From positions 1 through 24,217 of the forward strand of contig JAGVLI010000732.1 in NCBI GenBank assembly GCA_020054355.1: a stretch of DNA of 24,217 bases. The letters run 5' to 3'. The position numbers were made by a program, and so were the translations under genes. The notes under the pieces were generated by a model, which did not search any database, had not been told where the DNA came from, and saw only the letters and a program-made list of their open reading frames with translations. Source of the DNA: Planctomycetales bacterium. Lineage in GTDB: Bacteria > Planctomycetota > Planctomycetia > Gemmatales > Gemmataceae. Shown one piece after another: positions 2,557 to 22,068 of this stretch (positions within the stretch are counted from its first letter, which is position 1; each line of letters starts with the position of its first letter).

Positions 2557-2698
2557 AACCATGAGGCAACCCTCGTAACGGCCAGAGGCGGGGAGTCAAC
2601 TGCCAGCAGCAACCGTACAACGGACAAGAGAAGGCATTGGCGCAACCGAGTTGGGGGATGGAACTTTGCGCTTTTTCTTGAGCGGGGAGCGATCAGCC

Positions 2699-3367
2699 AT
2701 GACCGATTTCAACGAACTGGACCAGCAAATTGCCCAGAAGCTGGCCGCCCACAAGGAAGACTGCCTGAAGCGGTACAACCGCGCGGCAGAGCGCATGCAC
2801 GCCATCGGAGAGCGGCATCGGCGGTTCACGGTCATTGGCGACCGGCTGATCCAGGAGGTGATACGACCACGCTTCGAACGGCTGGCCGCCCACTTTGACA
2901 ATGGCATGCTCCTGAGCCAGGAGCAAACCGGACGCCACCACTGCATTTGCACATTCCAGCACACGCCCCGCTTTCCCGCCACAACCAAGCTGGAGATGGG
3001 CGTCAGTCGTGATGGCAACGCGGAGAACGTGGAGGTCTACAGCGATGTGTCCATCCTGCCGCTGTTTTTTCAGCTGAGCGGGGAAGATCGGATGGCCATG
3101 CCGCTTGACCAGGTTGATGAGTCGCAGGTCGCCAGCTGGATTGACAAGAAGATCATGCACTTCCTGGAGGCTTACCTGCGTCTGGAAACGCAGGACCAGT
3201 ACCAGGCCGAGAACGCAGTCTTTTGTCCGGTCTGCAATATGCAGGTCAACAAACTCTATGCGCCGGCACAACTGGAGCACCAGGGGAAACAGTATTTCTT
3301 CTGCGTCCCCGAGTGCAAGGAGAAGTTCGAGGCCGATCCCGAGAAATACCTGGCTGGAAAAAGGTGA
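2699..3367 (+). CDS. YHS/TRASH-domain protein, probably cytoplasmic, with an uncharacterised ~170-aa N-terminal region
   Basis: ATG at 2699 follows GGGGAG. C-terminal CPVCNMQV...QYFFCVPECKEKFEADPEKYL is a YHS pattern. No signal peptide. The stop is 3 nt before cusB. Confidence 0.85.
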   Translation: MTDFNELDQQIAQKLAAHKEDCLKRYNRAAERMHAIGERHRRFTVIGDRLIQEVIRPRFERLAAHFDNGMLLSQEQTGRHHCICTFQHTPRFPATTKLEMGVSRDGNAENVEVYSDVSILPLFFQLSGEDRMAMPLDQVDESQVASWIDKKIMHFLEAYLRLETQDQYQAENAVFCPVCNMQVNKLYAPAQLEHQGKQYFFCVPECKEKFEADPEKYLAGKR

Positions 3368-4693: not shown

Positions 4694-4706
4694 TGGGGTG
4701 CCGATC

Positions 4707-7700
4707 ATGATCGAAAAAATCATCAAGTTCTCCGCGAAGAACAAGTTCCTCGTCCTGATCTTCACCGTGGTGGCCGTGGTCGGAGCTATCCACTGGATGC
4801 GCGAAACCCCCCTGGACGCCATCCCGGACCTGTCGGACACCCAGGTCATCATCTATTCCCGCTGGGACCGCAGCCCGGACATCATCGAGGACCAGGTGAC
4901 CTACCCCATCGTGACGGCGATGCTGGGGGCCCCCAAGATCAAGGCGATTCGCGGCTTCTCCGATTTCGGTTTTTCCTACGTCTACGTCATCTTCCAGGAC
5001 GGCACCGACATCTACTGGGCGCGGAGCCGGACCATCGAGTATCTCTCCAAGATCTTGCCGCGGTTGCCGGAAGGAGTGCGGACCGAGCTCGGCCCAGACG
5101 CCACCAGCGTCGGCTGGGTCTTTCAGTACAGCCTGGTCGATAAGAGCGGTCAGAACGATCTCGCCCAGTTGCGCACATTTCAGGATTGGTATCTGCGCTA
5201 CCAGCTTCAGTCCGTCCCAGGAGTGGCGGAAGTGGCGTCGATCGGCGGGTTCCAGAAGCAGTACCAGGTCAACATCAACCCCAACGCCTTGAACGCCTAC
5301 AACGTGACCCTGCCGACCGTCGTCCAGGCGATCCGGGAGGGCAACAACGACGTCGGCGGCCGCGTCGTCGAGTTCAGCGGCGCCGAGTACATGGTGCGCG
5401 GCCGCGGCTATGTCAAGAGCGTTGCCGACGTCGAAAACATCGTGGTCGGCCGCGACGCGCAGGGCACGCCGATCCTGATCAAGAACCTGGGCCACGTCGC
5501 GCTCGGACCGGACATCCGCCGCGGGATCGCGGACCTGGACGGAGAGGGCGACACCGTTGGCGGCATTGTGGTCATGCGCGCCGGTGAGAATGCTCTCAAC
5601 GTCATCGAACGGGTCAAGGACAAGCTGGAGGACCTGAAGCCCTCCATGCCCAAGGGGGTCGAGGTTGTCACGACCTACGACCGTTCCGTGCTGATCGACC
5701 GCTCCATTGATACCCTCAAGGAAGAACTGCTGGTCGAGATCCTCATCGTCAGTGCGGTCATCCTCATCTTCCTGTGGCACATCCCGTCGGCGATCATCCC
5801 CATCTTGACGATCCCCGTTTCCGTGGTGCTGGCCTTCATCCCCATGTACTTCATGGGGCTGACCACGAACATCATGTCGATCACGGGGATCGCCATCTCC
5901 ATCGGCGTGCTGGTGGACGGCGCGATCGTCGAGGTGGAGAACGCCTATAAACGCCTGGAACAATGGATCGCCGGCGGCCGGCAAGGCGATTTCCACGACG
6001 TGCGTCTGCGCGCCCTCAAGGAGGTCGGGCCATCGGTCTTCTTCTCCCTGCTCGTCATCGCGGTGGCCTTCATGCCGGTGTTCACGCTCGTGGACCAGGA
6101 GGGCCGGCTGTTCAAGCCGCTGGCGTTCACCAAGAACCTGGCCATGGCCATCGCCGCGCTGCTCGCCATCACCCTCGACCCCGCGATGCGGATGATGTTC
6201 ACGCGCATGGACTATGTCCACTTCCGGCCCAGGTGGCTGGCCTGGATGGTCAACACGGCGACGGTGGGCCGCTACTATCCCGAGGAACAGCATCCCATCA
6301 GCAAGCGTCTGTTTCGCCTTTACGAGCCCGCGTGCAACTTCGTGCTGCGCCACAAGGCATTGATCATCATCGGCGCCTTCGCCCTCGTGCTGCTGACGAT
6401 CCCGGCCTACTCGCAGCTCGGCTCCGAGTTCATGCCCCCACTCGACGAGGGGACGCTCCTCTACATGCCGACGACCTTACCCGGGCTTTCGGTCACCGAG
6501 GCGCAAACCCTGCTGGGGACGATGGACCGGGTGCTGAAAATGTTTCCCGAGGTGGAGCGCGTGTTTGGCAAGGCCGGGCGAGCGGAGACCTCCACGGACC
6601 CGGCGCCGTTCTCCATGATGGAAATCACCATCGTGCTCAAGCCACACGAGCAGTGGCGCCGGAAGGAACGCTGGTATTCCGGCTGGCCCGGCTGGTTGCA
6701 AGTTCCCCTGCGGCACATCTGGCCCGACCGGTTGAGCACCGAGGAGCTGGTCGCGGAGATGGACCGCGCCATGCAGTTCCCCGGCGTCGTGAACGCCTGG
6801 ACCATGCCCATCAAGGCGCGCATCGACATGCTCAGCACCGGCGTCCGGACGCCGGTTGGAATCAAAATCCTTGGCGCGGACCTCAACGAGATCGAACGGC
6901 TCGGGGCCCACGTCGAGATGATCCTTAACCAGGTCCCCGGTACGCGGAGCATCTACGCCGAACGGACGGGGGGCGGGTATTTCATCGATTTCGTGCTCAA
7001 GCGGGAGCAGCTCGCCCGCTACGGTTTGACGGTCAAGGAAGCCGAGATGGTGGTCACGTCCGCCGTCGGTGGCGAAGCGATCACGACCACGGTGGAAGGG
7101 CGCGAGCGCTACACGATCAACGTCCGTTACGCCCGCGAGCTGCGCGACGACCTCGACAAGCTGCGCCGCGTGCTCGTCCCCACCTCGGCCGGCGCCCACG
7201 TGCCCCTCGCCGAGCTAGCCGACATCAAGCTCGTGACCGGTCCGGCGATGATCCGGGACGAGAACGGCCTGCTCTCCGGCTATGTTTACGTCGATCTGGC
7301 GGGGCGGGACGTGGGCGGCTACGTGGAGGAAGCCAAGGAGTTGGTCGCGAAGGAATTGCAGCTCCCGACCGGCTACACCCTCACCTGGAGCGGGCAGTAC
7401 GAGAACATGATTCGCGTGCGCGAGCGCTTGAAGCTCGTCGTGCCGATCACGATCTTTCTGATCTTCCTTCTGCTGTACATGAACACCGGCTCGGCGGTGA
7501 AGGCCGGCATCGTCATGCTTGCAGTCCCGTTTTCGCTGATCGGCGCCGTCTGGTTCCTGTGGTTGCTCGGCTACAACATTTCGATTGCCGTGTGGGTCGG
7601 CATGATCGCCCTGATGGGCCTGGACGCGGAAACCGGGGTCTTCATGCTGCTGTTCCTCGACCTGTCCTATTACGACGCAGTCCGCAAAGGCAAGATGAAG

Positions 7701-7997
7701 ACCTACGAGGACCTCAAAGAAGCCATCATCCACGGAGCTGTGAAACGCATCCGGCCGAAGATGATGACGGTGGCCGCGGCGATGATGGGCCTGTTGCCGA
7801 TCATGTGGTCGCTGGGCACCGGCGCCGACATGATGAAGCGGATCGCGGCGCCCATGATCGGCGGCCTGGTCACCAGTTTCATTCTCGAGCTCCTGGTCTA
7901 TCCGCCGATCTACGCCATCTGGAAATGGCGCTACGAGATGAAGTACGGCACGGTGGATGTCAGCCAGTTGCCGATCCCGGAGTTGCGGGCGCATTGA
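4707..7997 (+). CDS. cusA: CusA/SilA-family Cu(I)/Ag(I) efflux RND transporter (1096 aa)
   Basis: MIEKII start, DAIPDLSDTQVII and LGPDATSVGWV. Methionines lie in the contexts of the E. coli CusA triad (LLYMP, PFSMME, RIDMLSTG). Proton-relay residues lie in LVDGAIV, LDAETG and RIRPKMMT. Many TM segments. Confidence 0.96.
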   Translation: MIEKIIKFSAKNKFLVLIFTVVAVVGAIHWMRETPLDAIPDLSDTQVIIYSRWDRSPDIIEDQVTYPIVTAMLGAPKIKAIRGFSDFGFSYVYVIFQDGTDIYWARSRTIEYLSKILPRLPEGVRTELGPDATSVGWVFQYSLVDKSGQNDLAQLRTFQDWYLRYQLQSVPGVAEVASIGGFQKQYQVNINPNALNAYNVTLPTVVQAIREGNNDVGGRVVEFSGAEYMVRGRGYVKSVADVENIVVGRDAQGTPILIKNLGHVALGPDIRRGIADLDGEGDTVGGIVVMRAGENALNVIERVKDKLEDLKPSMPKGVEVVTTYDRSVLIDRSIDTLKEELLVEILIVSAVILIFLWHIPSAIIPILTIPVSVVLAFIPMYFMGLTTNIMSITGIAISIGVLVDGAIVEVENAYKRLEQWIAGGRQGDFHDVRLRALKEVGPSVFFSLLVIAVAFMPVFTLVDQEGRLFKPLAFTKNLAMAIAALLAITLDPAMRMMFTRMDYVHFRPRWLAWMVNTATVGRYYPEEQHPISKRLFRLYEPACNFVLRHKALIIIGAFALVLLTIPAYSQLGSEFMPPLDEGTLLYMPTTLPGLSVTEAQTLLGTMDRVLKMFPEVERVFGKAGRAETSTDPAPFSMMEITIVLKPHEQWRRKERWYSGWPGWLQVPLRHIWPDRLSTEELVAEMDRAMQFPGVVNAWTMPIKARIDMLSTGVRTPVGIKILGADLNEIERLGAHVEMILNQVPGTRSIYAERTGGGYFIDFVLKREQLARYGLTVKEAEMVVTSAVGGEAITTTVEGRERYTINVRYARELRDDLDKLRRVLVPTSAGAHVPLAELADIKLVTGPAMIRDENGLLSGYVYVDLAGRDVGGYVEEAKELVAKELQLPTGYTLTWSGQYENMIRVRERLKLVVPITIFLIFLLLYMNTGSAVKAGIVMLAVPFSLIGAVWFLWLLGYNISIAVWVGMIALMGLDAETGVFMLLFLDLSYYDAVRKGKMKTYEDLKEAIIHGAVKRIRPKMMTVAAAMMGLLPIMWSLGTGADMMKRIAAPMIGGLVTSFILELLVYPPIYAIWKWRYEMKYGTVDVSQLPIPELRAH

Positions 7998-8058: not shown

Positions 8059-9915
8059 ATGGCCAATCCTCTCAAGGACCCCGTTTGCGGCATGAACGTG
8101 CAAGCCACTTCAGGGTGGACTGCTTCTTACAGGGGGGCCGTTTACTACTTCTGCTCGGAGTATTGCCGGCGGTTGTTTGTGGAAAGTCCGGGAAAGTACG
8201 TTGCGCCGAGATCGCCGTCGCTCGGAGCCGAGCTGGACACTTCGCGGCGCATCGCGTACTTCTCCATGGAAGTGGGAGTGGACTCCCGGATGCCCACTTA
8301 TAGCGGCGGGCTCGGAGTGCTGGCGGGCGACACGTTGACATCGGCCGCGGACCTTCGCATCCCGATGGTCGCGGTCAGCTTGCTGCCGGCCAACGGCTAC
8401 TTCGACCAGCAGCTCGACGAGTGGGGCAACCAACGGGAAGCTCCGGTAATCTGGGACCCAGCGGCTCTGGCCCGCAAGCTCCCCACGACGGTGGAAGTCA
8501 TGATCGAAGGCCGGCGGGTGCTTGTCGGTGGCTGGCAATATGACATTGTCGGGGCTACCGGCTACTCGGTGCCGCTGTTCCTTCTCGACTGCCGAGTGGA
8601 CCAGAACACTCCGGCGGACCGGGAATTGACCGCCTGGCTCTATGGCGGCGATTTGCGCTACCGGCTCGCCCAGGAGATCATCCTGGGCCTCGGCGGCCTC
8701 CGCCTGTTGCGGGCCCTGGGATACGCGCAGCTGGAACGGTATCACATGAACGAGGGGCATGCGGCCTTGCTGGTCATCGAACTCCTGCGCGAAAGGGAGA
8801 ACCAGGGGCTGGGCCGGTGGGATTTCAACGGCGTCCGGGCGCAGTGTGTCTTCACTACGCATACCCCCGTCCCCGCCGGCCATGACCAGTTCCCCTACGA
8901 CCTCGTTCATCAGATGCTCGGAGAGCCGGTACCTGGCGACGTCCTGCGCATGCTCGCCGGCACCGATCGATTGAACATGACCTACCTGGCCTTGAACATG
9001 AGCAACCACATCAACGGCGTGGCCAAGAAGCACGGGGAAGTTTCCCAGGCCATGTTCCCCGGTTATGCGATCCATTCCATTACCAACGGTGTCCATGCCG
9101 GGCGCTGGACCGCGGACAGTTTCAAGGCCCTGTTCGATCGCTGCATCCCCGGCTGGGCCAACGACCCGTTCTCTCTGCGGCACGCCGTTGCCATCCCGCG
9201 GGAGGAAATTGGCCAGGCTCATGCGCTGGCCAAGCAAGCCTTGCTTGCCGAAGTACATCGGCGAACAAACGTTGCCCTCGACCCGGAAACGTTTACGATC
9301 GGCTTCGCCCGGCGAGCTACGCAGTACAAGCGGGCGGACTTGCTCTTCACGGACTCCGGACGCCTCCGAGAGATCGTGGCGAACGCCGGCCCGATCCAGA
9401 TTCTCTTCGCGGGGAAGGCCCATCCGCAAGATCAAGGCGGCAAGGAAAGCATCCGGCGAGTGTTCGAGGCCGCGCGCCAGCTGCGAGACAAGGTCGCGAT
9501 CGTGTACCTCGCCAACCACGACATGGCCTTGGCCCAACTGCTTACTGCCGGGGTCGATCTCTGGCTGAACACGCCGCTGCGGCCCCTGGAGGCTTCGGGC
9601 ACCTCCGGCATGAAAGCGGCCCTGAACGGCGTGCCGAGCCTCAGCGTCTTGGACGGCTGGTGGATCGAAGGACACCTGGAGGGGATTACCGGCTGGTCCA
9701 TCGGGCCTGCGTCCGCTAAGTCTCTTCCCCAGGGGGACGTCAATCGGGAAGATGTCGAGGACCTGTACCGTAAGCTCGGCAGCGTCATCGTACCGCTTTA
9801 CTACCGCGACCGAACAGGCTGGGGCGACATCATGCGGCAGACGATTGCACTCAACGCCTCCTTCTTCAACACTCACCGGATGCTTCAGCAATATGCTGCG
9901 AATGCCTACGTTTGA
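8059..9915 (+). CDS. glgP: Alpha-glucan (glycogen/maltodextrin) phosphorylase, short GT35 type, with an N-terminal YHS domain
   Basis: GGAGG precedes the ATG. Residues 1-48 are KDPVCGMNV...YYFCSEYCRRLF (YHS). They are followed by IAYFSME, YSGGLGVLAGD, HMNEGH, FTTHTPVPAGHD, GFARRATQYKR and EASGTSGMKAALNG (PLP lysine). Confidence 0.93.
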   Translation: MANPLKDPVCGMNVQATSGWTASYRGAVYYFCSEYCRRLFVESPGKYVAPRSPSLGAELDTSRRIAYFSMEVGVDSRMPTYSGGLGVLAGDTLTSAADLRIPMVAVSLLPANGYFDQQLDEWGNQREAPVIWDPAALARKLPTTVEVMIEGRRVLVGGWQYDIVGATGYSVPLFLLDCRVDQNTPADRELTAWLYGGDLRYRLAQEIILGLGGLRLLRALGYAQLERYHMNEGHAALLVIELLRERENQGLGRWDFNGVRAQCVFTTHTPVPAGHDQFPYDLVHQMLGEPVPGDVLRMLAGTDRLNMTYLALNMSNHINGVAKKHGEVSQAMFPGYAIHSITNGVHAGRWTADSFKALFDRCIPGWANDPFSLRHAVAIPREEIGQAHALAKQALLAEVHRRTNVALDPETFTIGFARRATQYKRADLLFTDSGRLREIVANAGPIQILFAGKAHPQDQGGKESIRRVFEAARQLRDKVAIVYLANHDMALAQLLTAGVDLWLNTPLRPLEASGTSGMKAALNGVPSLSVLDGWWIEGHLEGITGWSIGPASAKSLPQGDVNREDVEDLYRKLGSVIVPLYYRDRTGWGDIMRQTIALNASFFNTHRMLQQYAANAYV

Positions 9916-10173: not shown

Positions 10174-10746
10174 GTGCAATCGACGGCAAATAAAGCGATC
10201 TTCTGGACAGCGGGAGCGCTGGTGACGGTCCTTGGTGCAGCCGTGACGTGGTTCACCATCGGTGTCCGGGATGCACATGCTTCTCCGTTGGTCGGTTGGG
10301 GCGGAGGTCATGCCTGGAAGAAGCCGGTTTGCAGCTGCGATGGCGAGGACGTGTCTGACACCGTAGGCGGCACCTGGTACTGGCTCCGCAGTCCGGATGA
10401 GGAAAAGCGCGTCATCGCCGGCCTCTATAACCGCTACTGTATTCGCTGTCATGGGGTGGACGGCCGGGGTGTTTGGGACATCCCCGACGTGCCCGACTTT
10501 ACCAACTCCCGCTGGCAGGCTTCGCGCTCCGATGCTCAGCTGGCGCGGCTCACCCTGGAAGGCCGCGGGGCAGTCATGCCGCCGTTCCGCGGGGCGCTGA
10601 GCCTCGAAGAGGCTTGGGGCATGGCCCGTTATTTGCGCACTTTTGTGCCGGGGACCGAAGTGTCGCGCCCTCGGTTTGACGAACCGGGAAAACCCGTCGC
10701 AGCCGAGTTGCCTGCGCCGAAGAAGATCGAGCCCGCCCCAAAGTAG
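10174..10746 (+). CDS. Exported or membrane-anchored monoheme class I (c6-like) cytochrome c
   Basis: GGAGGG precedes a GTG start; N-terminal hydrophobic segment; CIRCH at 10438-10452; probable distal Met in AVMPPF. Confidence 0.88.
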   Translation: MQSTANKAIFWTAGALVTVLGAAVTWFTIGVRDAHASPLVGWGGGHAWKKPVCSCDGEDVSDTVGGTWYWLRSPDEEKRVIAGLYNRYCIRCHGVDGRGVWDIPDVPDFTNSRWQASRSDAQLARLTLEGRGAVMPPFRGALSLEEAWGMARYLRTFVPGTEVSRPRFDEPGKPVAAELPAPKKIEPAPK

Positions 10747-11076
10747 CAATTTGGCCCGGACAGAGGTCCCCGGTCGGATTGTTTCCTGGCGTAGTCCACG
10801 ACGGCGCGCTTGATGCCTGATTCTTTCCGCCATCAACTGCGGCCATTTTCGCAACCGTGTTCGTCTTTTCCCCCTCTCTGGCCTTGCCCAATTTCAAGTG
10901 ACTGTCGATCTTGCCCGTCCCGCTTGCGCCGAGGTGAGCGGGGCCGGGTTTCCACGTTCCCAGAAGAAACACGGCCCACGGCCTATCCTGACTCCTATCG
11001 GAGTTTCCCACGCGGGCCGCGTCGTGAGCAAAACCAGCTTTGCTACTAATCCTCAAACTCCGTCCGACCGATATTA

Positions 11077-11104
11077 TCGACAAGTCCGGAAAGATCGATA
11101 GAAT
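11077..11104 (+). promoter_or_regulatory. Candidate sigma70-type promoter for the beta-barrel/cytochrome genes
   Basis: TCGACA-N16-TAGAAT. The -35 element overlaps the inverted repeat CGATA-T-TATCG (11069-11079). Confidence 0.35.
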
Positions 11105-11245
11105 CGCAATTCTCGCCTGCCGTTCGCGTATCGGTGGCGAATCGTTGCCAGCGCGTTCAGCGGTTGCGCTCTTGCTTCTCCAGAGCAGCTGGAATTGCTG
11201 CGGAGCAGGTTTTCGTTTCCTGGGCTATCTGGCCGGGAGTTCGGT

Positions 11246-12841
11246 ATGCGCATTCTGCCCTCGTTCATCTTGCTGGGGATTGCCATGCTGGCCCTACCCA
11301 GGATGGGTGAAGCCCAATCTCCCAGTACCGTGAGCAATCCCGGCGACGAGGTCGGGGCGCCAGACCACGGTCGGGAAGTATCGCCGGCAGGCGAAGGTCC
11401 GTCTCCTGAGGAACAACTCGTCCGCTTGCAGAAAAACATCGAAGCCTTGCGCGCGGAGCAGGCAGTCGTTCAAGCGGCAGTCCAGCCGGATGACAAGCTG
11501 AAAAAGCAGTTCGATCTCCTGCAGAAGCAGATCGAAACCCAGCAAAAGATGATCGAGCTGCTCTTGGATCACGTGAAGAAGCAGCCGCTGGCCGGTACGC
11601 CAGTCGAAAAGTTGCAAGGCCAGGTCGCCACCGTGCAAGCCCGTTCCAAGCAGGCTGCCCAGCGCGACCAGGAGCTGTCGCAGGCGCTCGACAATGTCGT
11701 CGAGCAGCGGGACGCCGACCAGCGAAACGGGCCGCAACTGCCGGCACCTCTGAAAGAGCTATTCCTGCCCAGCGGAACGAACGAGTCGCCCCTGAGCATC
11801 TATGGCACGCTGGCAACGGGCTATACCCACTTTGAAGGGCGCCATGGGAACTTTGAATTCCCGGATTTCGCCCCATTCTTCCTCTTGCAGCTCAATGATC
11901 GGTTCCTGCTCGAAGCGGAGATCGAATTCGGCGCCGAGGAAGTTGAAGTCTCCCAGGCGCAGGTTGACTTCATCGCCAACGATTGGCTGACCGTGGTCGC
12001 CGGCCGATTCCTGGTTCCCGTGGGATTCTTCAACGAACGGTTGCATGCGAACTGGATCAACAAGCTGCCCGATTTTCCCTTGATATTCCGTCAGGTCACT
12101 CCTGTTAGTGACCTGTCCCTCAACGGCGTCCAGTTGCGCGGCGCCAAGTACCTGGGATGTTGGCCCGTGAAACTTGAATACGCATTGTTCTTTGCCAACG
12201 GCCTCCGCTTGCCAGAAACCGAAGCGCCAGAACTGGCAGAATTGGCAACTCTCGACGAACTGAAGGAAACCTCTCGCGAACTGACCAATGTCTGGGCCTC
12301 CGGCGGGCGCCTGGGCATCTGGCTGCCGGAAATCGGGCTGGTTGCCGGGATTTCCGGGTTTTTCAACGGTCCCTATACGGCGGTAGTCTTCGAAGAGGAC
12401 CCACCCCGCCGGGCCAATGACGACTTCCAGGTTTTGCAAGTCGATGCCGGTTACCACAAGGGCAACTGGGACGTGCGCTTCGAGTATGCCCACATGTTCC
12501 AGGACGCGCGTTCGTTCATCGGCGAGAGGATCGAGCGGCGCGGGCTTTACGCCCAGGTTGCTTATCGGCCGTACCACGCGCAGTGCAAGTACGTGCAAAA
12601 CACCGAGCCGGTGTTCCGCTTCAGCTCCGCCCGATTCAAAGGAATTGATCCGGCAGGTTTGGATATCGGTGCCTTTGCCTCGCCGCTCGATGTCCCGGTC
12701 GACCGCGATCAGTACACCTTCGGCGTCAACTACTATTTCTATCCATCCCTGGTGCTGAAGCTGGCCTACGAGTTCAATCACGAGCGCGGCATCGATCTCA
12801 AGGACAACGTGTTCCTGGCCCAGCTGGCCTGGGGGTTCTAG
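11246..12841 (+). CDS. Putative outer-membrane beta-barrel (porin-like) protein with an N-terminal coiled coil
   Basis: GGGAG precedes the ATG at 11246. A signal peptide (MRILPSFILLGIAMLALP...A) is followed by a Gln/Glu/Lys heptad region, then alternating amphipathic strands (e.g. YTFGVNYYF, VLKLAYEF). It ends LAQLAWGF with a terminal aromatic residue. Confidence 0.75.
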   Translation: MRILPSFILLGIAMLALPRMGEAQSPSTVSNPGDEVGAPDHGREVSPAGEGPSPEEQLVRLQKNIEALRAEQAVVQAAVQPDDKLKKQFDLLQKQIETQQKMIELLLDHVKKQPLAGTPVEKLQGQVATVQARSKQAAQRDQELSQALDNVVEQRDADQRNGPQLPAPLKELFLPSGTNESPLSIYGTLATGYTHFEGRHGNFEFPDFAPFFLLQLNDRFLLEAEIEFGAEEVEVSQAQVDFIANDWLTVVAGRFLVPVGFFNERLHANWINKLPDFPLIFRQVTPVSDLSLNGVQLRGAKYLGCWPVKLEYALFFANGLRLPETEAPELAELATLDELKETSRELTNVWASGGRLGIWLPEIGLVAGISGFFNGPYTAVVFEEDPPRRANDDFQVLQVDAGYHKGNWDVRFEYAHMFQDARSFIGERIERRGLYAQVAYRPYHAQCKYVQNTEPVFRFSSARFKGIDPAGLDIGAFASPLDVPVDRDQYTFGVNYYFYPSLVLKLAYEFNHERGIDLKDNVFLAQLAWGF

Positions 12842-12888
12842 GTGTGCCGCTTGGTGTTACCGGTGCTGCAAGTGAGGAGGACGGAGTC

Positions 12889-13410
12889 ATGCTGACGATT
12901 CGAACCATCGCTGCCGGTGTCATGCTGGCTCCTGCTTTCGGCCTGGCATTCGTGCTCGGCTGCCACAACACGCCGGCGGACACCTCGGATTACGCCCGGG
13001 GCCCGACTCCGCTGCGGACCCCTTCTCCTGCCCGGGAGGGTGAGGAAGGCTGTTGTTACGAATCGTCCCTGACCGGCGGACACATCTTCGAAATGTACTG
13101 CGGCGCCTGTCACAACGCGCGCAGTCTGGCGGAACGTCCCTTTTCGAATTACCAGAACGTTGCTGCCCACATGCGCGTCCGCGCCAACCTCACGGGAGAA
13201 GAATACGCCAAGCTGATGGCCTGGCTGCGCCGCTGGCACGACGTGCCGCCGCCGAATCCGCCGCTCGAGCCGTCGCCCAAGCGATTCATTTTCGCACAGC
13301 CGATCCCGGAACTTCGGGACCAGGCTGCCCCCGCGCCCGCACCCGCTCCGAAAGCGGGGGAGGAAGAAGAGTCTGAAGACCCCCAGCCCCGCGAGTCGGC
13401 CAAACCCTGA
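12889..13410 (+). CDS. Putative lipoprotein monoheme cytochrome c
   Basis: Strong RBS (GAGGAGG...GGAG); signal ending in lipobox-like VLG-C; CGACH at 13099-13113; candidate distal Met in AHMR; Pro/Glu-rich tail. Confidence 0.82.
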   Translation: MLTIRTIAAGVMLAPAFGLAFVLGCHNTPADTSDYARGPTPLRTPSPAREGEEGCCYESSLTGGHIFEMYCGACHNARSLAERPFSNYQNVAAHMRVRANLTGEEYAKLMAWLRRWHDVPPPNPPLEPSPKRFIFAQPIPELRDQAAPAPAPAPKAGEEEESEDPQPRESAKP

Positions 13411-13676: not shown

Positions 13677-14324
13677 ATGTACCGGCACCGATTCACAAAT
13701 GCTCGAGTTCTGGCTGTCGCGGCGGCAGCTTTGCTGTTTGCCGCGGGTCCCGCAACTGCCCAGCATGGCCGCGGGCACGTCGCGGTACATCATGGTAGTC
13801 CCCACGTCGCCGTCCATCATGCCAGTCCTCACGTGACTGTGCATCATGCCGGCTACTACCGGCACCCCACGTACTATTACCCCACCGCGCGATATTCCAC
13901 CTGGCGCCCCAGTGTGTACTATCACTACTATTACCCGCGGTACTGGGGTTACTACCCGTCGTTCTTCAACTACGGGAGCTATCCGTATGCGGAGTATGGG
14001 CCGGGGTACAATCCTTACGGTTCGCCGCCGGGTGGTTACCAGGCGTTCTACCCTCCGACAGCTCAGCCTGAGCTGACTGCCCAGGTGGCGGTCCGTGTCC
14101 CGGCCAATGCCGAGGTTTGGTTCAATGGAGCGGCAGCAGCTCAGAAAGGCCCGCTGCGCGAGCTTGTATCGCCGCCGCTGACCCCTGGGCTGGAATTCAA
14201 CTATGAAATCCGTGCCCGCTGGCTGGAAAACGGACGGGAGGTGACCAAGGTGCGGCAGGTCACCGTCCGGGCGGGTGATCGGCTGACAGTCGATCTAACC
14301 TCCGCCACAGCCAAGAAAGGCTGA
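13677..14324 (+). CDS. Exported TIGR03000-domain (planctomycete) protein with His repeats and a Tyr-rich linker
   Basis: GAAAGGAGG RBS and a signal peptide ending ATA-Q. C-terminal VRVPANAEVWFNG...SPPLTPG...YEIRARW...VTVRAG is the pattern recognised for this domain. Confidence 0.85.
   Translation: MYRHRFTNARVLAVAAAALLFAAGPATAQHGRGHVAVHHGSPHVAVHHASPHVTVHHAGYYRHPTYYYPTARYSTWRPSVYYHYYYPRYWGYYPSFFNYGSYPYAEYGPGYNPYGSPPGGYQAFYPPTAQPELTAQVAVRVPANAEVWFNGAAAAQKGPLRELVSPPLTPGLEFNYEIRARWLENGREVTKVRQVTVRAGDRLTVDLTSATAKKG
13776..13853 (+). repeat. Three in-frame 27-bp tandem repeats encoding HV(A/T)VHH(G/A)SP
   Basis: CACGTCGCGGTACATCATGGTAGTCCC / CACGTCGCCGTCCATCATGCCAGTCCT / CACGTGACTGTGCATCATGCCGGC. 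Confidence 0.85.
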
Positions 14325-14414: not shown

Positions 14415-16640
14415 TCAGGGTTTGCGGGGTGGGGCAGACAACTCCTGCAATTGCCTCTGCAATTCACGCCACTGGTCTTGCAATTCTCGGAAACGCTTCT
14501 CAAAATCGCCGGGAGGCGGTTCACTGGTTGCTGGCCGGAATGGGCCGAATGCCCGCACGTAGGCAACCAAGTCTTGTGCCTGTTCCTCGCCCACGCGCCC
14601 GCGGAAGGCAGGCATGAGCGTTCCCTTGCCGTCGAGGATACTCACCGCCAGCTGGGGATTACCGACTCCTTCCTGCCAGGTACGACTGGTGAAATCCTGG
14701 ATCGTCGGCATGCTCGCTTTCAGTTCCAGCCCACGCCCATCCGCGCCGTGACAGATCAGACAATACTGCCGGTACAAGCTGGCGGCCACGCGCATCCGCG
14801 CCGCGGTTTCCGGCGAAGGCCCAGAAGGCGTCTTCGGGCCGGGGATAATCGCCGGCTGTTCCGGGGCGGGCGGCACGACCGGAGGTTGCGGCTCCAACTT
14901 GACAACCTGCTTGCCCTCCTGGAATGCCCGCACGTAAGCGACCATTTTCTCGGCGTCGGCCTTGCCCATCTTGTCCTTCATCGGCAGCATGAACTTGCCT
15001 TTGCCTTCCAAGATGGAGTGCAGCAATTCCTCATCTTTCCGAGAGGCTTGCCACTTGGGATCGGTGAAATCGGACATGTCGGGCATCGCCTTGCGTACAG
15101 TGTTGCCGCGTCCGTCGGCGTCGTGGCAGGCCAGGCAGTAGGCCCGGTAGATTTGTACCGGAGACATCTGGGCCGTGACCGGCCCGGGCGGCGGCGGGAC
15201 AGGTTTAGGCGGCAGGGCTTCACCGCTGCCGACCGCAAAGGCGCGAGTGTAGATCGACAGCGCCAGGATCTGTCGCTCGCCGAGCTTGTTCCGATAGGCC
15301 GGCATCAACGGCTCGTTGCCGTCTTGGATGCGGTGCGTGATCTCCAGGTCGGTCTGGGACATCTGCCAGGTCAGGCTGGTGAAATCAGGGATCGTCGGCA
15401 TGCCTTGCCGAATCTGGCTGCCGGAGCCGTCCACGCCGTGGCAGGCCGCACAGTTCGCGTTGTACAACTTGGCCACGTCGGCCCGCTGCAGAAGACCGGC
15501 TGGTTCGGTCGGCACCGGCGGCTGGACCACGGCGATGGCCGGCTCCCTCATCCGCACATCCGTGGCGATCGCGTAGATGGTCAAGCCGATCAGCCCGATG
15601 GTTCCTCCGCTGAGCAAGCCCAGGGCCAACGGCCGTTTGCGGGGTTTCAGTTGCGGGTTGCGGTCCAGAAACGGCCAGAATAATAGCAGCAGGAAAAACA
15701 GGGTCGGCAGGACAAACGTGCCGACGATCTCGTAGGGGCCTTCGAAGTACCTCAGGAGCTGGAAGAGGAACATGAAGTACCATTCCGGCCGGGCCTCGTA
15801 AGGCTGGGAAGGGTCCGCTTGGGCTTCCAGGGGGGCCGGCTGATAATAGCACCAAACGCCTAGGCCCAGGAGGAACACCAGGGCAAACACGCCGTCTTTC
15901 CAGGCTTGCCTGGGCCAGAACGGTTCTTGCTTGGCTTCCAGCTGAGCGCCGGATTCCCACCAGGAAGGCGTGATGCCGTGCAGTCGGAACAGGTAGAGGT
16001 GGACCACGATCAGAAAGATGATCAGTCCCGGCAGGATGAATGCGTGAATGGTGAAGAAGCGGGTCAGGGTCAGGTTGCCCATCTGCGGCCCACCCTGGAG
16101 CAGACTCCGGATGCTATCGCCGATGACCGGCGTGGTGCTGGCAATACCCAGGCCGACCTTGGTTGCCCAGTATGCTTTCTGGTCCCAGGGGAGAAGGTAG
16201 CCTGTGAAGGACAGGCCCAACACGCAGAACAGCAGCAAGACCCCCACCATCCAGGTGAATTCACGCGGTTTCTTGTACGCTCCCCAGACGAACACCTGGA
16301 TCAGGTGAAACAGCAAGAGGATGACCATGGCGCTGGAGCCCCAGTGGTGCAGCGCCCGGATAAAACCGCCAAGGGGCACTTCTTCCTGGATGTACTTGAC
16401 GCTCGGCCAAGCGGTCTCGACCGAGGGGGCGTAGCACGTGGTCAGGAGAATGCCGGTGATGACCTGCAGCGTGAAGGCGAAAAGGAGCAAGCTGCCGAAA
16501 GCCGCCGTCCAGCGCGAGCCGCCCGGCAGCGGTTCGAGCAGAAGCAGCTGCTTCAGCCGGCTCCAGCCCGTTCGCGATTCCCAGAATCCGGGCTGAGGCT
16601 TTGGTTCGACCGCAGGTTGTTGTTCGTGCTCGTTGTCCAT
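14415..16640 (-). CDS. qcrB: Cytochrome b (b6 + subunit IV-like, unsplit) of a Rieske/cytb complex, fused to three C-terminal cytochrome c domains
   Basis: Heme b His pairs in RALHHWG...FHLIQVF and IHAFILP...VVHLYL; GYLLPWDQKAYWA; Qo motif RPEWYF. CxxCH at 15438-15452, 15123-15137 and 14748-14762. Confidence 0.93.
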   Translation of the reverse strand: MDNEHEQQPAVEPKPQPGFWESRTGWSRLKQLLLLEPLPGGSRWTAAFGSLLLFAFTLQVITGILLTTCYAPSVETAWPSVKYIQEEVPLGGFIRALHHWGSSAMVILLLFHLIQVFVWGAYKKPREFTWMVGVLLLFCVLGLSFTGYLLPWDQKAYWATKVGLGIASTTPVIGDSIRSLLQGGPQMGNLTLTRFFTIHAFILPGLIIFLIVVHLYLFRLHGITPSWWESGAQLEAKQEPFWPRQAWKDGVFALVFLLGLGVWCYYQPAPLEAQADPSQPYEARPEWYFMFLFQLLRYFEGPYEIVGTFVLPTLFFLLLLFWPFLDRNPQLKPRKRPLALGLLSGGTIGLIGLTIYAIATDVRMREPAIAVVQPPVPTEPAGLLQRADVAKLYNANCAACHGVDGSGSQIRQGMPTIPDFTSLTWQMSQTDLEITHRIQDGNEPLMPAYRNKLGERQILALSIYTRAFAVGSGEALPPKPVPPPPGPVTAQMSPVQIYRAYCLACHDADGRGNTVRKAMPDMSDFTDPKWQASRKDEELLHSILEGKGKFMLPMKDKMGKADAEKMVAYVRAFQEGKQVVKLEPQPPVVPPAPEQPAIIPGPKTPSGPSPETAARMRVAASLYRQYCLICHGADGRGLELKASMPTIQDFTSRTWQEGVGNPQLAVSILDGKGTLMPAFRGRVGEEQAQDLVAYVRAFGPFRPATSEPPPGDFEKRFRELQDQWRELQRQLQELSAPPRKP

Positions 16641-16659
16641 GCGTCTGGTCCTGTCTCGA

Positions 16660-17187
16660 TCAAGTGCTCACCGGAACTCGCTGGGCCACGCCGATCTTGA
16701 ATTCTTGCCAGCGCACCAGCAAGCGGCCCGCACGGACCTGGAACTCGATAGGGTCCATGGAACGCGGAGGCGGGCCCGCGATGTAGCGGCCCTCGGCGTC
16801 GAAGACCCCGCCGTGGCAAGGCGACACAAACTGGGAGCGATCCGGATGCCAGTTGATGGGACAGCCCAGGTGCGGGCAGATCGGCGACAAGACAGTGACT
16901 TCCTGGTCGGACGCTGCTTTGCGCCGGACCCACAGGGAATGGCGGAACTTGGCCTTTTTCCAGCCGTCCTGGTGAACCATCTCCAGGGCCAGCAGCCGCC
17001 ATTCGCCGATCGGCAGATCGGCGAGTCGTCCCATGTCGATGAAGCCCGCCTCGGCGCCTTCGCGTTTCCATAGGGGGGCCAGCAGATACCCGATCGCGGG
17101 GATGGCCACCAGCAGGCTGAGTCCCGCGAGCAAGATTTCCGTACAGTACGTCATGAAACGCCTGCGGTGGTCGTTCGCTTCGGACAT
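16660..17187 (-). CDS. qcrA: Rieske [2Fe-2S] subunit of a Rieske/cytb complex, with a variant box II
   Basis: Tat-like RRRFM followed by a TM helix; box I CPHLGC; box II SPCHGGVF; GPPPRSMD tail. It ends 19 nt before the cytochrome b start. Confidence 0.9.
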   Translation of the reverse strand: MSEANDHRRRFMTYCTEILLAGLSLLVAIPAIGYLLAPLWKREGAEAGFIDMGRLADLPIGEWRLLALEMVHQDGWKKAKFRHSLWVRRKAASDQEVTVLSPICPHLGCPINWHPDRSQFVSPCHGGVFDAEGRYIAGPPPRSMDPIEFQVRAGRLLVRWQEFKIGVAQRVPVST

Positions 17188-17516: not shown

Positions 17517-17873
17517 ATGCCGACTCAAGTGGAACTCGCCGAGTACCTGGAAGAGATTCGCAGCCAAGTCTGCAGCCGTTGTGTCGAACGGCCGCCGGGC
17601 GGCCCACCCTGCGCGCCTTTGGGCAAGCAGTGCGGCATCGAGTTGCACTTGCCCGCGCTGATCGATTCGATCCACCAGGTGAAGAGCGAATACTGGATCG
17701 AGCCGTACCTGGAGCACAACCGCGAGCAAGTCTGCACCACGTGTCCGCATTTGCACAGCAGCATCTGCCCCTGCCCGATGGACTACCTGGCCGTGCTGCT
17801 GGTGCAAGCCGTTGAAACCGTGGATGAGCGCCGCACGGCAAGGCAGCTCGCGGCTGAAGAGGGCAAACCGTGA
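17517..17873 (+). CDS. Small Cys-rich hypothetical protein with an internal duplication (putative metal or Fe-S binding)
   Basis: GGAGAGGG RBS; repeats YLEEIRSQVCSRC and YLEHNREQVCTTC; 8 Cys in 118 aa; no signal peptide. Confidence 0.8.
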   Translation: MPTQVELAEYLEEIRSQVCSRCVERPPGGPPCAPLGKQCGIELHLPALIDSIHQVKSEYWIEPYLEHNREQVCTTCPHLHSSICPCPMDYLAVLLVQAVETVDERRTARQLAAEEGKP

Positions 17874-18213: not shown

Positions 18214-19773
18214 TCAGGGAAGGCTGTTCCGCGGCACCAAGCCGAGAGGTCCGCCGACCGAGCGTTCCAAGGCGGCCAGCCGGCGGAAGTAGTCGGCAAT
18301 GGCTTCATAGTAACGGTCTTCCAGGCTGACGACATTTCTTTGGGCCTCAATCAGGCTCAGGAACGGAACCCGTCCCGTCACATAAGCCGCCTGCGCGGCT
18401 CTGACGTTATTTTGCGCCGCGGGCAGGATTTCTTCTTCATACAGCCGGATGACTCGCTGACTTTCCCGGACCTGGGCAAATGCCTGCTGGACCTCGTAGT
18501 TTGATTGATCGGTGAGCCTGGCCAGTTCGGCGCGACGCTGGGTTATCCGGGCCTGGGCCTCGCTGACGGCTCCGTAACGTCGTGCACGCCGGACCGGCAG
18601 ATTCACTCGCACAGCGAGCTGGGTGCGCAGGTCTTTTTCCTCTGGCTGCCAGAAGGCGTCGTAGGCCGCCAGCACGTCAAAGTCCGGGTAGAATTCTCGG
18701 TTGGCCAGGCCAAGCGCGGCTTCCTCGGCGGCGATCCGGTTCGCCAGCGCTTGCAAATCGGGACGCCGCGACAAGGCAAGCGCACGCAATTGTTCCGCTT
18801 CGGGCAAGGGATCCGGCTGAAAGCGAGATGCGACCGTCAGCCCCGCGGCGAACAGGCCGCTGACGGGTGGGGGCAGGAAGAGGAGAATGCCCACGCTCGA
18901 TTGCCAGGACGCGGGCCTGGGCGCCGGCGGCAAGGAGAGATCGGGCGGCAGGTGCATCAGGGTATTGAGGCGGGCGACCGCGACCTGGCGGAGTCGGTCC
19001 AGAAGCACACCGCGTTCGCGCTGGCGGCCAATCTCCACGTCGGCCTGGAAAACATCTTGCTGGACTGCCTGGCCGGCGCGGTAGCGCGCCTCGGCATTCT
19101 GACGGAACTCACGCAACAGCCGGAGGCCTTTCTCGTTGACCGCCGTGGCCCGGTGGACCAGATAGTAATCGTAAAAGGCGCTCTTGGCCGCCTCGATCAG
19201 TTGCAGGGCCGCGTCATCCACCTCATTACCGGCAGCGCTTGCCTCCGCCAGGGCATTCTCCCCCCGCAACCGCAGTTTGCCGGGGAACGGGTATCTCTGC
19301 GATACTTCCAGTCGGTAAGCGAAGTCCACTTGATCGGAGCCAATGGAGGCTGGGCCAAAGGTGGCGCCGAAGGTCGGGTCGTCCAACGAAGTCACCTGCG
19401 GGTAGCGGGCCGAGGCCGCTTGCCAGGCCGCGATCATCTGGGGCAACGTGGGATTTCGGGCAAGCACTTGCTGGACCAACGCCTCCAGGGAAAGTTCGCT
19501 CATTCCCTCAAAGGGAGGAGCATTCCCGAGGTCATCGGTCGCGCATGTTGATGTCGGAGTGGGAGCCGGCAGGGTGGGGATCGGCGATGGAGGAGCCTCA
19601 AGAGCAGGAACGGCCTCAGTCGCCGGTGATGGCGCGACAAGTTTTGCGTTTTGTGCAGCCGGTGGCACCTGCGCGGTTGGCGACAGAAGCGGCAGCGAAT
19701 CACATCCCGCCTGGAGGGCCAGGATCAATGAAGCGCAATACCGTATCGCTCGGTTAGACCTTGCTCGTAGCAT
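18214..19773 (-). CDS. TolC/CusC/CzcC-family outer-membrane efflux lipoprotein
   Basis: The ATG at 19773 gives a basic-hydrophobic signal with lipobox LQAG-C (alternative start 19836). OEP repeats: LVQQVLARNPTL, QRYPFPGKLRLRG, AKSAFYDYYL, ALSRRPDL, EFYPDF, YVTGRVPFLSLIEAQR. Confidence 0.9.
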   Translation of the reverse strand: MLRARSNRAIRYCASLILALQAGCDSLPLLSPTAQVPPAAQNAKLVAPSPATEAVPALEAPPSPIPTLPAPTPTSTCATDDLGNAPPFEGMSELSLEALVQQVLARNPTLPQMIAAWQAASARYPQVTSLDDPTFGATFGPASIGSDQVDFAYRLEVSQRYPFPGKLRLRGENALAEASAAGNEVDDAALQLIEAAKSAFYDYYLVHRATAVNEKGLRLLREFRQNAEARYRAGQAVQQDVFQADVEIGRQRERGVLLDRLRQVAVARLNTLMHLPPDLSLPPAPRPASWQSSVGILLFLPPPVSGLFAAGLTVASRFQPDPLPEAEQLRALALSRRPDLQALANRIAAEEAALGLANREFYPDFDVLAAYDAFWQPEEKDLRTQLAVRVNLPVRRARRYGAVSEAQARITQRRAELARLTDQSNYEVQQAFAQVRESQRVIRLYEEEILPAAQNNVRAAQAAYVTGRVPFLSLIEAQRNVVSLEDRYYEAIADYFRRLAALERSVGGPLGLVPRNSLP

Positions 19774-19949
19774 TGTGCAGACCCCCATCGTCGCCGTCCC
19801 TGGCTTGCGAGACGTGCCGGTCTCGGCAGTTTGCATGTTTCCCTGAACGAAACCGGAAAAACTAGCGAGACGTTCCTTGGTCATTCTTATCGGCCTGGAA
19901 TATTCGGCGTCATCAGCAAACCTTGCCCCGCCGCAACATTGGCGATGGG

Positions 19950-19979
19950 TTGACTCCGCGCAGGTCGCGGGCATACAAT
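19950..19979 (+). promoter_or_regulatory. Sigma70-type promoter candidate for the distal Cys/His-rich gene run
   Basis: TTGACT-N18-TACAAT, each hexamer one mismatch from consensus, 38 nt upstream of the ATG at 20018. Confidence 0.55.
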
Positions 19980-20422: not shown

Positions 20423-20560
20423 CCAGTTCGATCCCGGGATCCCGCCTATCCCTATCGGCATTGACTCATGCTTCGCTTTCCGTTAGCCGATAGTCTCAAT
20501 TGAGGTGAACGTCGGCGATGCCGACCGAGCGTGCCTCGAATGACCGTGGTAAGGCAGACC

Positions 20561-21007
20561 ATGTTGCGGATTGCAGTAACCTCTTACCTGTTGCTTACGA
20601 TAATGGCAGGCCCATGGCTGTGCTGCTGTAACGTCGCGCGCCTCGCTACCCTGCTGCAATCCTCCACTGAACCAGCAGCGAAGGGTTGTCATCGCAGCCA
20701 GTGCTGTCAACACCAGGCAGCGCGGCACCAGGGCAGCGAACCGGCCGCTCCCAGCCAGCCCAAACCGGAACCGGCCAAGCCGTGTCCGTGCAACGAAAAC
20801 CACCCCGTGGCTACATCGGCAGATTCCACCGGACAGGAAATCGTGCGGCAGCTGGAACGCGGGCTGCCGTCGGTTAGTCCGTTCATTTCGCTGATCGGTC
20901 TCGACCCGACCTGTCACATCAACTTCCGGCATTCTTTGGAGTCCCAGGCCTTCCCCTATCTCACGGGCCGGGAGATTCTCCAGACCTTGCAGACCTATCT
21001 CTGCTAA
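20561..21007 (+). CDS. Hypothetical Cys-rich protein (CCC motif) with a signal-like N-terminus
   Basis: AAGG precedes the ATG. MLRIAVTSYLLLTIMAGPWLCCC is followed by GCHRSQCCQH and PCPC; it ends EILQTLQTYLC. Confidence 0.7.
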   Translation: MLRIAVTSYLLLTIMAGPWLCCCNVARLATLLQSSTEPAAKGCHRSQCCQHQAARHQGSEPAAPSQPKPEPAKPCPCNENHPVATSADSTGQEIVRQLERGLPSVSPFISLIGLDPTCHINFRHSLESQAFPYLTGREILQTLQTYLC

Positions 21008-21201
21008 ATCCAGCTCTCTCCCATTGCCTGCCCGTACTTGAGTTCGCGCGTGGGTTGGCAGGCACATTCTTTGCACGAATAGCATTTGACCAACACAAGG
21101 ATGTCGCAGGTCGTTGCGCGCCTGCTTCAAGCCGGCAGCTTCGCCGTGCCAAAGGTCGGCGACGCAATCGGACTCTATCCCTGAAAAGGAGGACAAAGAC
21201 C

Positions 21202-22068
21202 ATGTTCCGCAAATACGCTTGGTTCGCCATTCCATTCGCTCTGGCGTCGGTCGTGCTTTACACCGGCTGCAACGCCTCCAACAGTAACCCGCCGCAGGCC
21301 GCTGGCCCGGACAAAGGCAAGGATTCCAAGGCTGCGGAAGTCAAGAAAGACGACGAGCACGCCCACAAGCCCGGCGCGCACGGCGGCATCATCGTCGAGA
21401 TCGGCCGGGACAACTACCACGCCGAAGCCGTCTTTGAGAAGGGTGGCACGCTGCGGCTGAACACCCTGGGCAAGGATGAAGCAAGGGTGCAGGAAGTCGA
21501 GGCCCAGACAGTGGCGGCCTACGTCAAGCCCGAAGGCGGGACCGAAGCGTCGTCGATCCTGCTCAAACCGGCACCGCAGCCGGGAGACAAGCCGGGGATG
21601 ACCTCGCAGTTTGTCGGCCAGCTGCCCGCCGAGATGGTCGGCAAGGCCGTGGAAGTGACTATCCCCAGCATGACCATCGCGGGCGAGCGCTTCCGGCTTG
21701 GCTTCAAGTCGGCCAGCGAAGCGCACGCCGACTCAGGGATGCCTCCCGGCGCGTCCGGAGAAGAGGCAAAGGACCTCTACCTCAAGCCCGGCGGCATCTA
21801 CACTGAAGCCGATATCAAGGCCAACGGCAACATGACGGCCGCGCAGAAGTTCAAGGGCATCGTCTCTAACCACAACGCCAAGCCGAAACCCGGTCAGAAG
21901 ATCTGCCCGATCAGCATGACTCAGGCCAATCCGAAGTTTACCTGGATCGTCGGCGGTAAGCCTTACGAGTTCTGCTGCCCGCCGTGCGTGGACGAGTTCG
22001 TCAAGACCGCCAAGAACAATCCAGAGGAAATTCTGCCTCCGGAAAAGTACGTGAAGCAGCAGCAGTAA
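21202..22068 (+). CDS. Putative metal-binding lipoprotein: His-rich HGG domain plus C-terminal YHS/TRASH-like domain
   Basis: AAGGAGG RBS; signal ending YTG-C; EHAHKPGAHGG...NYHAE; C-terminal ICPIS...YEFCCPPCVDEF. Confidence 0.85.
   Translation: MFRKYAWFAIPFALASVVLYTGCNASNSNPPQAAGPDKGKDSKAAEVKKDDEHAHKPGAHGGIIVEIGRDNYHAEAVFEKGGTLRLNTLGKDEARVQEVEAQTVAAYVKPEGGTEASSILLKPAPQPGDKPGMTSQFVGQLPAEMVGKAVEVTIPSMTIAGERFRLGFKSASEAHADSGMPPGASGEEAKDLYLKPGGIYTEADIKANGNMTAAQKFKGIVSNHNAKPKPGQKICPISMTQANPKFTWIVGGKPYEFCCPPCVDEFVKTAKNNPEEILPPEKYVKQQQ

Follow-up and report, generated by a model that had tools for sequence, protein, structure and literature searches.

Fusions of cytochrome b with class I cytochrome c domains have been described for Planctomycetes and other phyla (PMC4122944, as the 'PEWY-cyt c clade'; PMC4986455; PMC4013037), and the cytochrome b fusions of Schlesneria and Kuenenia carry two c haems (PMC4986455). 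Here, we analysed a 24.2 kb stretch of planctomycete DNA (GC ~0.62; called the window throughout) in which a Rieske gene and a cytochrome b gene form a two-gene unit, with the cytochrome b running on in the same polypeptide into three class I c domains and a terminal helix. With the published planctomycete fusions it shares a long unsplit cytochrome b with the PEWY motif, class I c domains in the same polypeptide, an upstream Rieske gene, and the lack of any gene for a separate c1. It differs in having three c domains joined by long Pro-rich linkers, whereas the published proteins have one or two c domains ~90 residues apart. A class I c domain at the C-terminus of a PEWY cytochrome b is what defines the 'PEWY-cyt c' type (PMC4122944), and by its architecture the window protein has this feature. 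Since one- and two-c-domain fusions have been published, the three-haem form is a variant and not a new kind; an earlier sequence-only reading of this DNA, which set the protein against complexes with a single cytochrome c1 or f and against the separate dihaem QcrC, had omitted these fusions (PMC4122944, PMC4986455). What is new here is that the three-haem-plus-helix module is common to cytochrome b and to ActE, a subunit of alternative complex III (ACIII), and also occurs free. New as well is that in ~20 loci the gene carrying it adjoins a conserved porin/cytochrome cassette. In the literature searched, which did not extend to Dibrova 2013 and ten Brink 2013, there was no specific report of the three-haem cytochrome b fusion, of ActE fusions or of Gemmata respiratory chains.

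The two open reading frames (ORFs) were confirmed on the minus strand: the Rieske gene at 16660-17187 (175 aa) and, 19 bp downstream of it, the fusion gene at 14415-16640 (741 aa). Pfam assigned Cytochrome_B (E 9e-48), Cytochrom_B_C, and three Cytochrome_CBB3/Cytochrom_C stretches to the 741-aa protein. The cytochrome b core (aa 1-360; 15561-16640, minus strand) was delimited using Pfam, alignment, AlphaFold2, and Foldseek. Across an alignment of 107 full-length homologues with 66-80% identity, the haem-b ligands H98/H99, H112, H199, and H214, which make up two histidine pairs on helices B and D, are invariant, as is the Qo motif P285-E286-W287-Y288. The AlphaFold2 model of the fusion (mean predicted local distance difference test score, pLDDT, 78; predicted template modelling score, pTM, 0.52) contains seven transmembrane helices, with a b6-like set of four joined to a subunit-IV-like set of three (E, F, and G). 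With seven helices the C-terminus should lie in the periplasm, as haem c attachment needs. In Foldseek, it was only the b core that matched solved bacterial and mitochondrial cytochrome b structures, with a TM-score of 0.68-0.78 depending on the target; every match from the PDB sequence and fold searches was either to a cytochrome b core or to one c domain, the fused architecture being absent among them. The histidine pairs, the PEWY motif, and the subunit-IV-like helices place the protein in the Rieske/cytochrome b family.

The Rieske [2Fe-2S] subunit is recognised by Pfam Rieske, with NCBIfam matches to b6f/bc1 Rieske models below the equivalog cut-offs. Its gene has a GGAGGA ribosome-binding site ahead of the ATG, and all related loci likewise have a Rieske gene immediately 5' of the fusion gene. 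The protein has a twin-arginine motif (RRRF) with an N-terminal transmembrane anchor, box I as CPHLGC, and box II as SPCHGG; the residues that follow the CH, G127 and F129, suggest a low-potential, menaquinol-type cluster under the classification of PMC4122944. Residue 122 is Ser (codon TCG, 16822-16824) in the window only, and all of the approximately 50 relatives compared keep Cys (CPCH or CACH). The cluster ligands themselves are intact in the window copy (CPHLGC ... CH), the Ser standing in place of the disulphide partner Cys. The Ser122 base was matched by one contig of run X1 (depth 3.9), a run that may be the source sample. Between them, the two proteins supply every cofactor ligand that a Q-cycle enzyme requires.

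Past the PEWY motif and the last membrane helix, the polypeptide continues into c domain 1 (aa 389-468, 15237-15476; C397xxC400H401 and M446), delimited by alignment conservation, c domain 2 (aa 494-574, 14919-15161; C502xxC505H506 and M551), which lies between two Pro-rich linkers of variable length, and c domain 3 (aa 613-699, 14544-14804; C627xxC630H631 and M676), the latter two delimited by alignment and AlphaFold2 and all three on the minus strand. In each, the CxxCH motif and the Met 45-50 residues later are invariant across the 107 homologues, and AlphaFold2 gives compact helical folds with pLDDT ~80-90, so that each domain is a class I cytochrome c. Their PDB sequence matches are CcoP and the Kuenenia c-552, and the three are paralogues, 38-47% identical to one another. 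The first is the best conserved, with a mean identity to the query residue of 0.78 versus 0.79 for the cytochrome b core, and is tied to helix G by a short conserved linker (DVRM.EP; 28-36 residues across homologues); domains 2 and 3 are less conserved. The linkers at 377-384, 472-487, 594-606, and 703-711 all have pLDDT <50, with a Pro content of 28-33% in the interdomain linkers and 19% in the first and last segments. Among homologues the two interdomain linkers range over 29-54 and 45-88 residues, respectively, as counted between anchor residues. Thus, being conserved like the b core and held by a short linker of nearly fixed length, c domain 1 is the proposed c1 equivalent, and the lower conservation of c domains 2 and 3, together with their Pro-rich linkers of variable length, points to mobile relays. 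The chain ends with an amphipathic heptad helix (aa 712-735; 14436-14507, minus strand; AlphaFold2 and alignment) that precedes a Pro/Lys tail and has a nearly invariant 4-3-4-3 hydrophobic seam (F713, F717, L720, W724, L727, and L731).

What the sequence-only reading had described is therefore largely borne out: the two-gene Rieske/cytochrome b complex is real (ORFs, Pfam, and invariant ligands agree); cytochrome b does run past PEWY into three class I CxxCH/Met domains according to Pfam, the alignment, and AlphaFold2; the Pro-rich linkers appear flexible in both their low pLDDT and their variable length; and the terminal coiled coil corresponds to a predicted helix with a conserved heptad seam. 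A tethered periplasmic wire, as it had been called there, is the natural reading of such linkers. The structure prediction proposed as a check gave the seven membrane helices, the three c domains, and the end helix. As a whole, the observation was confirmed and its interpretation found partial support.

The architecture search, proposed as another check, was run against a 5.8-billion-protein collection and recovered more than 100 protein clusters sharing cytochrome b with three c domains. The best 120 database matches were all ~740 aa long with exactly three CxxCH motifs, contigs bearing the fusion reach 3.5 Mb, and near-identical fragments occur in drinking-water metagenome runs from at least 3 studies. 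Given the uniformity of these matches, the length of the contigs, and the recurrence of fragments in metagenomes, the fusion is not an assembly artefact, which was one of the two outcomes that the sequence-only reading had named as refuting it. As to the other outcome, an architecture already common and characterised, the fusion is abundant in metagenomes, but no experimental characterisation was found in the literature searched. Among species-representative genomes of Gemmataceae the fusion is rare, with 5 of 252 carrying it (G000, which is the source genome of the window, G379, G406, G539, and G550), and a second genome from the window's own genus is without it. Elsewhere in the phylum, a search of 400 evenly sampled genomes recovered no copy of the module at E <= 1e-50; some module-bearing metagenome proteins are labelled Pirellulales or 'Deltaproteobacteria'. 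Cytochrome b with zero, one or, most commonly, two c domains is widespread phylum-wide. The dihaem fusions of other planctomycete families use a different c-domain subfamily and have no end helix, whereas the module of the window is common to ACIII. An 854-aa cytochrome b fusion with three CxxCH motifs was also seen in another planctomycete family (L022, G200:C4); it is unrelated, and as its C-terminal part is different and lacks the end helix, its third c haem seemingly arose independently.

A few irregular forms were encountered in this survey. Two apparently split versions (P0147 and P0139; cytochrome b of ~270-330 aa followed by a three-haem gene of 405-440 aa) were read as long-read frameshift errors because two copies of one and the same region differ in their gene calls and the neighbouring genes are fragmented as well. 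In L116 (G549:C23, 6965-9226), the cytochrome b fusion falls into three overlapping ORFs (553, 289, and 99 aa), which points to gene decay or to frameshifts introduced by sequencing. Run X3 contains a 22-nt joint that connects 16063 to 16862; since it has a short side and its contig continues unlike the window, it was treated as another organism. The metatranscriptome run X10 held a small share of the sequence words and was not used as evidence of expression.

Other multi-haem or fused c acceptors offer further comparisons. Firmicute b6c complexes, in which QcrC combines subunit IV with a monohaem c, and the cytochrome b-c1 polyprotein FbcH of Bradyrhizobium likewise have the c acceptor in frame with cytochrome b or part of it; each has one haem c, the Firmicute cytochrome b is split and contains haem cn, and FbcH is cleaved into two proteins. 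In the window fusion the haem-cn CxGG motif is missing, with AAFGS at that place, and the histidine spacing in helix D is b6-like (14 residues between H199 and H214). The single polypeptide sets it apart from the b6f-type split into cytochrome b6 and subunit IV. Such a b6f-type operon is present as a second system in the same genome (contig C521; L002/L066), with a CPCHGS Rieske protein, a short cytochrome b6 with the CMGG haem-cn motif, and a separate subunit IV. The actinobacterial QcrCAB complex resembles our system in oxidising menaquinol, here a predicted activity, in having more than one c haem instead of a soluble carrier, and probably in a low-potential Rieske cluster; its QcrC, however, is separate and dihaem, whereas the c domains here are fused and number three. 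Scores of 109.7 bits for bc1_QcrB_actin (cut-off 500) and 48.8 bits for bc1_QcrC_actin (cut-off 200) in NCBIfam place the window proteins outside QcrCAB.

The module was found on other hosts as well. Relatives of ~565 aa align with fusion residues ~380-740 (~350 residues) at 48-53% identity, collinearly and including the end helix. They begin with an ActE-like monohaem domain, and their gene directly follows those for a multihaem ActA, a molybdopterin-like ActB, an NrfD-like ActC, and ActD. These relatives hold the ActE position of ACIII, with the module at their C-terminus. They thus carry the same three-haem-plus-helix unit as the window protein, where the host is cytochrome b instead; canonical ActE, as in G552, is monohaem and ~190 aa long. 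Free, signal-anchored three-haem forms with the same end helix were also found, the neighbours of which were uninformative. In a tree of the module, the main cytochrome b-linked group, the ActE-linked group, and the free forms make separate clades, with a small second b-linked group beside the ActE clade; this topology indicates that the fusions are old and arose in more than one event. The end helix itself marks a wider cytochrome c family with one to four haems, for which a search of 1.84 billion representatives gave 228 at E <= 1e-30, dihaem proteins being the commonest. One metagenome contig (L100, 464-12313) brings both hosts together: a full ACIII operon with the ActE-module fusion comes first, the Rieske/cytochrome b fusion immediately after it, and then the porin cassette described below.

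Wherever the module sits, it tends to have the same three-gene neighbour. In the window, this cassette begins with a membrane-anchored monohaem cytochrome c of 190 aa (10174-10746, plus strand; Pfam Cytochrome_CBB3) bearing a variable Cys/His-rich segment; it is 36-44% identical to the three fused c domains, and at least 12 loci have an orthologue (55-85% identity) at the corresponding place. Next comes a predicted outer-membrane porin of 548 aa (11195-12841, plus strand; likely start M18 at 11246), assigned from AlphaFold2, Atlas neighbours, and sub-threshold Pfam matches. Its model comprises a signal peptide, a conserved helical, coiled-coil-like stalk of ~110 aa, and a 16-strand beta-barrel ending in AWGF; its nearest Atlas clusters are OprO/OprP-like, and Porin_O_P and Porin_4 matched below threshold. 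Starting 3 bp after the porin gene is a lipoprotein monohaem cytochrome c (12844-13410, plus strand; lipobox VLGC and CGACH). In every locus inspected the porin gene is likewise followed at 3 bp by an orthologue, which is 47-72% identical to the window protein. Neither the porin nor the lipoprotein cytochrome is covered by a Pfam family.

Three narrower synteny look-ups had found only the two-gene unit conserved, and it was wider sampling that exposed the cassette. Its order (anchored cytochrome c, porin, lipoprotein cytochrome c) and orientation are kept in ~20 loci, beside a carrier of a helix-bearing cytochrome. That carrier is the Rieske/cytochrome b fusion in the window, L070, L100, L101, G539, G549, and the P0025 contig, ACIII with the ActE fusion in G349, G383, G533, G648, and G649, and a small free helix-bearing cytochrome in G554 and G563. 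In a census of the 252 family genomes, the module was present in 14, the porin in 18, and both in 12, so that the porin occurs in 12/14 module genomes versus 6/238 of the others. The linkage of module and cassette spans at least 10 genera and two host enzymes.

From these observations we consider it probable that the two-gene unit encodes a menaquinol:cytochrome c oxidoreductase running a Q cycle, in which the module links the quinol pool to the outer-membrane cassette, to a caa3 oxidase, or to both; everything functional beyond cofactor binding we infer from sequence. Menaquinol would be oxidised at Qo, with one electron passing from the Rieske cluster through c domains 1, 2, and 3 in turn. 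The first of these would dock on the complex and accept from the Rieske head in the manner of cytochrome c1 or f, and the other two, on their variable Pro-rich linkers, would serve as a tethered carrier passing electrons outward. The third domain, with the end helix, would then meet the next carrier, and the helix may dock on the long periplasmic stalk of the porin. Alternatively, electrons could reach the caa3-type oxidase, whose CoxB with a fused c domain is encoded in the same genome as the window. No ACIII (ActD) was found in the source genome G000 (69.6% complete) or in G379 (95% complete). With caa3 present and no ACIII found in G000, delivery to the oxidase is the conservative reading, and as the cassette linkage is common to ACIII, an additional or different end point at the outer membrane is likely. 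Models put forward for neutrophilic Fe(II) oxidisers couple ACIII or bc1 to a periplasmic cytochrome c and to a cytochrome of the outer membrane (PMC5566968). Electrons could leave the chain for an outside acceptor, or a donor could feed them inward, as the Cyc2-Cyc1-ACIII/bc1 schemes propose for iron oxidisers (PMC5566968).

A broader version of the same idea is a modular and hitherto undescribed periplasmic route of Gemmataceae, in which the module, mounted on Rieske/cytochrome b or on ACIII, is joined to cytochromes of the outer membrane via the stalk of a trimeric porin dedicated to this task, so that the cell could trade electrons with a redox partner outside it or in the periplasm, a metal or mineral for instance; we put it forward tentatively. 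Several points weigh against the proposed route. A pTM of 0.52 means that the AlphaFold2 model does not give the arrangement of the fusion's domains, and the porin model is shallow (14 sequences, mean pLDDT 68). Shared ancestry of related genomes inflates both the synteny and the co-occurrence counts; two module genomes, G406 and G623, have no porin, and neither L068/G406 nor L069 has a cassette near the operon. The cassette cytochromes lack the end helix, and monohaem proteins alone are not obviously able to span the outer membrane. Finally, Ser122 at the disulphide position might impair the window's own Rieske copy.

The unit could instead belong to an ordinary aerobic complex III whose tethered c domains replace soluble cytochrome c and feed caa3 directly, as the dihaem QcrC does in the actinobacterial bcc-aa3 supercomplex, with the cassette a separate function that travels along. 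This account, which we regard as possible though doubtful, draws on the caa3-type oxidase in the same genome, on the failure to find ActD in G000 or G379, so that the fusion may be the main quinol:cytochrome c route, on the frequency of c domains fused to cytochrome b across the phylum, and on the loci that have no cassette nearby. It leaves unexplained why ACIII-borne modules and free helix-bearing forms also stand beside the cassette (~20 loci with all hosts), why the module is so rare (14/252 genomes) despite general caa3/ACIII respiration, and why the end helix is conserved. An account with less to recommend it, and in our view improbable, runs the electrons inward: Fe(II), Mn(II) or Cu(I) would be oxidised at the porin/lipoprotein cytochrome and the electrons passed along the wire to the oxidase and, by reverse bc/ACIII, to the quinone pool. 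The Cyc2-Cyc1-ACIII/bc1 and MtoAB/PioAB/PCC routes of metal-oxidising or metal-reducing bacteria (PMC5566968) are like our system in their logic, namely in pairing an outer-membrane barrel, here a predicted one, with a c cytochrome, in using periplasmic c cytochromes, and in the interchange of ACIII and bc complexes. That interchange was observed here too, and near-identical DNA comes from drinking-water metagenomes. The present system differs in having a stalked porin, separate monohaem cytochromes, and a periplasmic carrier tethered to the inner-membrane enzyme; moreover, porin and cytochrome are separate genes in an order opposite to that of Cyc2, the porin's nearest Atlas clusters are anion porins (OprO/P-like), and no homology to Cyc2, MtoAB or PioAB was seen, although no dedicated comparison was made.

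The sequence-only reading had proposed the neighbouring cytochromes or a metal as the acceptor. The former gain support from the synteny of the cassette (10174-13410) in ~20 loci, and the metal is weakly supported by a flank limited to one subclade. An account built on that flank, namely copper or metal homeostasis in which electrons from quinol set the Cu(II)/Cu(I) state of the periplasm, or reduce some other metal, so that the adjacent Cus-type RND pump can handle it, appears to us quite unlikely. The system does lie among CusB/CusA-like, YHS, and outer-membrane efflux protein (OEP) genes in the window, L101, G379, and the P0025 contig, a variable Cys/His-rich segment is present in the anchored cytochrome c, and L101 has an MbnB-family gene. 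However, ten other loci with cassette and module host have no Cus/YHS/OEP homologue in the 12-20 kb stretches examined, and the flank is therefore specific to the one subclade formed by those four. We see a negligible chance that the gene is dead or that the fusion was created by faulty assembly or gene calling. The source genome is a fragmented metagenome-assembled genome (1115 contigs, 69.6% complete), the Rieske protein has Ser at the disulphide position, and the G549 gene is broken into three ORFs; against this, 107 independent sequences preserve the single frame (66-82% identity) and every one of the cofactor ligands, by which the artefact is refuted for the architecture.

Complex III and ACIII are usually viewed as unrelated solutions to one task. 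Here they share the module and the neighbouring cassette, and the output side of quinol oxidation therefore looks exchangeable, with a dedicated partner. If the outer-membrane partner is real, a bc- or ACIII-coupled electron route to the outer membrane would be indicated for the first time in non-anammox planctomycetes, bacteria with enlarged periplasms that abound in soil and in drinking-water systems. The module would also offer a natural system for tethered multi-domain electron carriers, in which docking between helix and stalk is a defined, testable hypothesis.

The planctomycete origin of the window is indicated by a TIGR03000 planctomycete-specific domain in the ORF at 13677-14324 and by the best protein matches, which are labelled Gemmataceae or Planctomycetaceae. 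On inspection by eye, no GG-N10-GC match to a sigma-54 promoter was present upstream of the Rieske gene. In three related loci (L069, L072, and L073), the fusion operon adjoins a protoglobin-domain sensor kinase, a sigma-54 activator, and Usp and CBS proteins, none of which occurs in the window; this neighbourhood hints at gas- or stress-dependent regulation in those relatives.

The metal-handling flank comprises, on the plus strand and by Pfam, a YHS protein (2651-3367), a CusB-like protein (3371-4693), a CusA-like RND pump (4620-7997), and a YHS-phosphorylase fusion (8059-9915). The last of these is a 618-aa protein with an N-terminal, metal-binding YHS domain and a glycogen-phosphorylase-like domain, and is 69-72% identical to its positional counterparts in L101 and G379. 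The same order of Cus and YHS genes is found beside the system in L101, and a part of it in G379 and the P0025 contig. The OEP gene (18214-19974, minus strand; TolC/CusC-like, Pfam OEP) lies upstream of the Rieske gene, and a homologue occupies the corresponding place in G379, L101, and the P0025 contig. A Cys-rich 118-aa protein that has no Pfam match (17517-17873, plus strand) has 60-73% identical homologues beside the system in L101, L114, and L117. After the OEP gene, the region 20531-22068 holds a 158-aa ORF very rich in Cys and His (with CCC and CC runs) and a 337-aa ORF with a weak TRASH/YHS-like C-terminus, both of which fit a metal-handling island.

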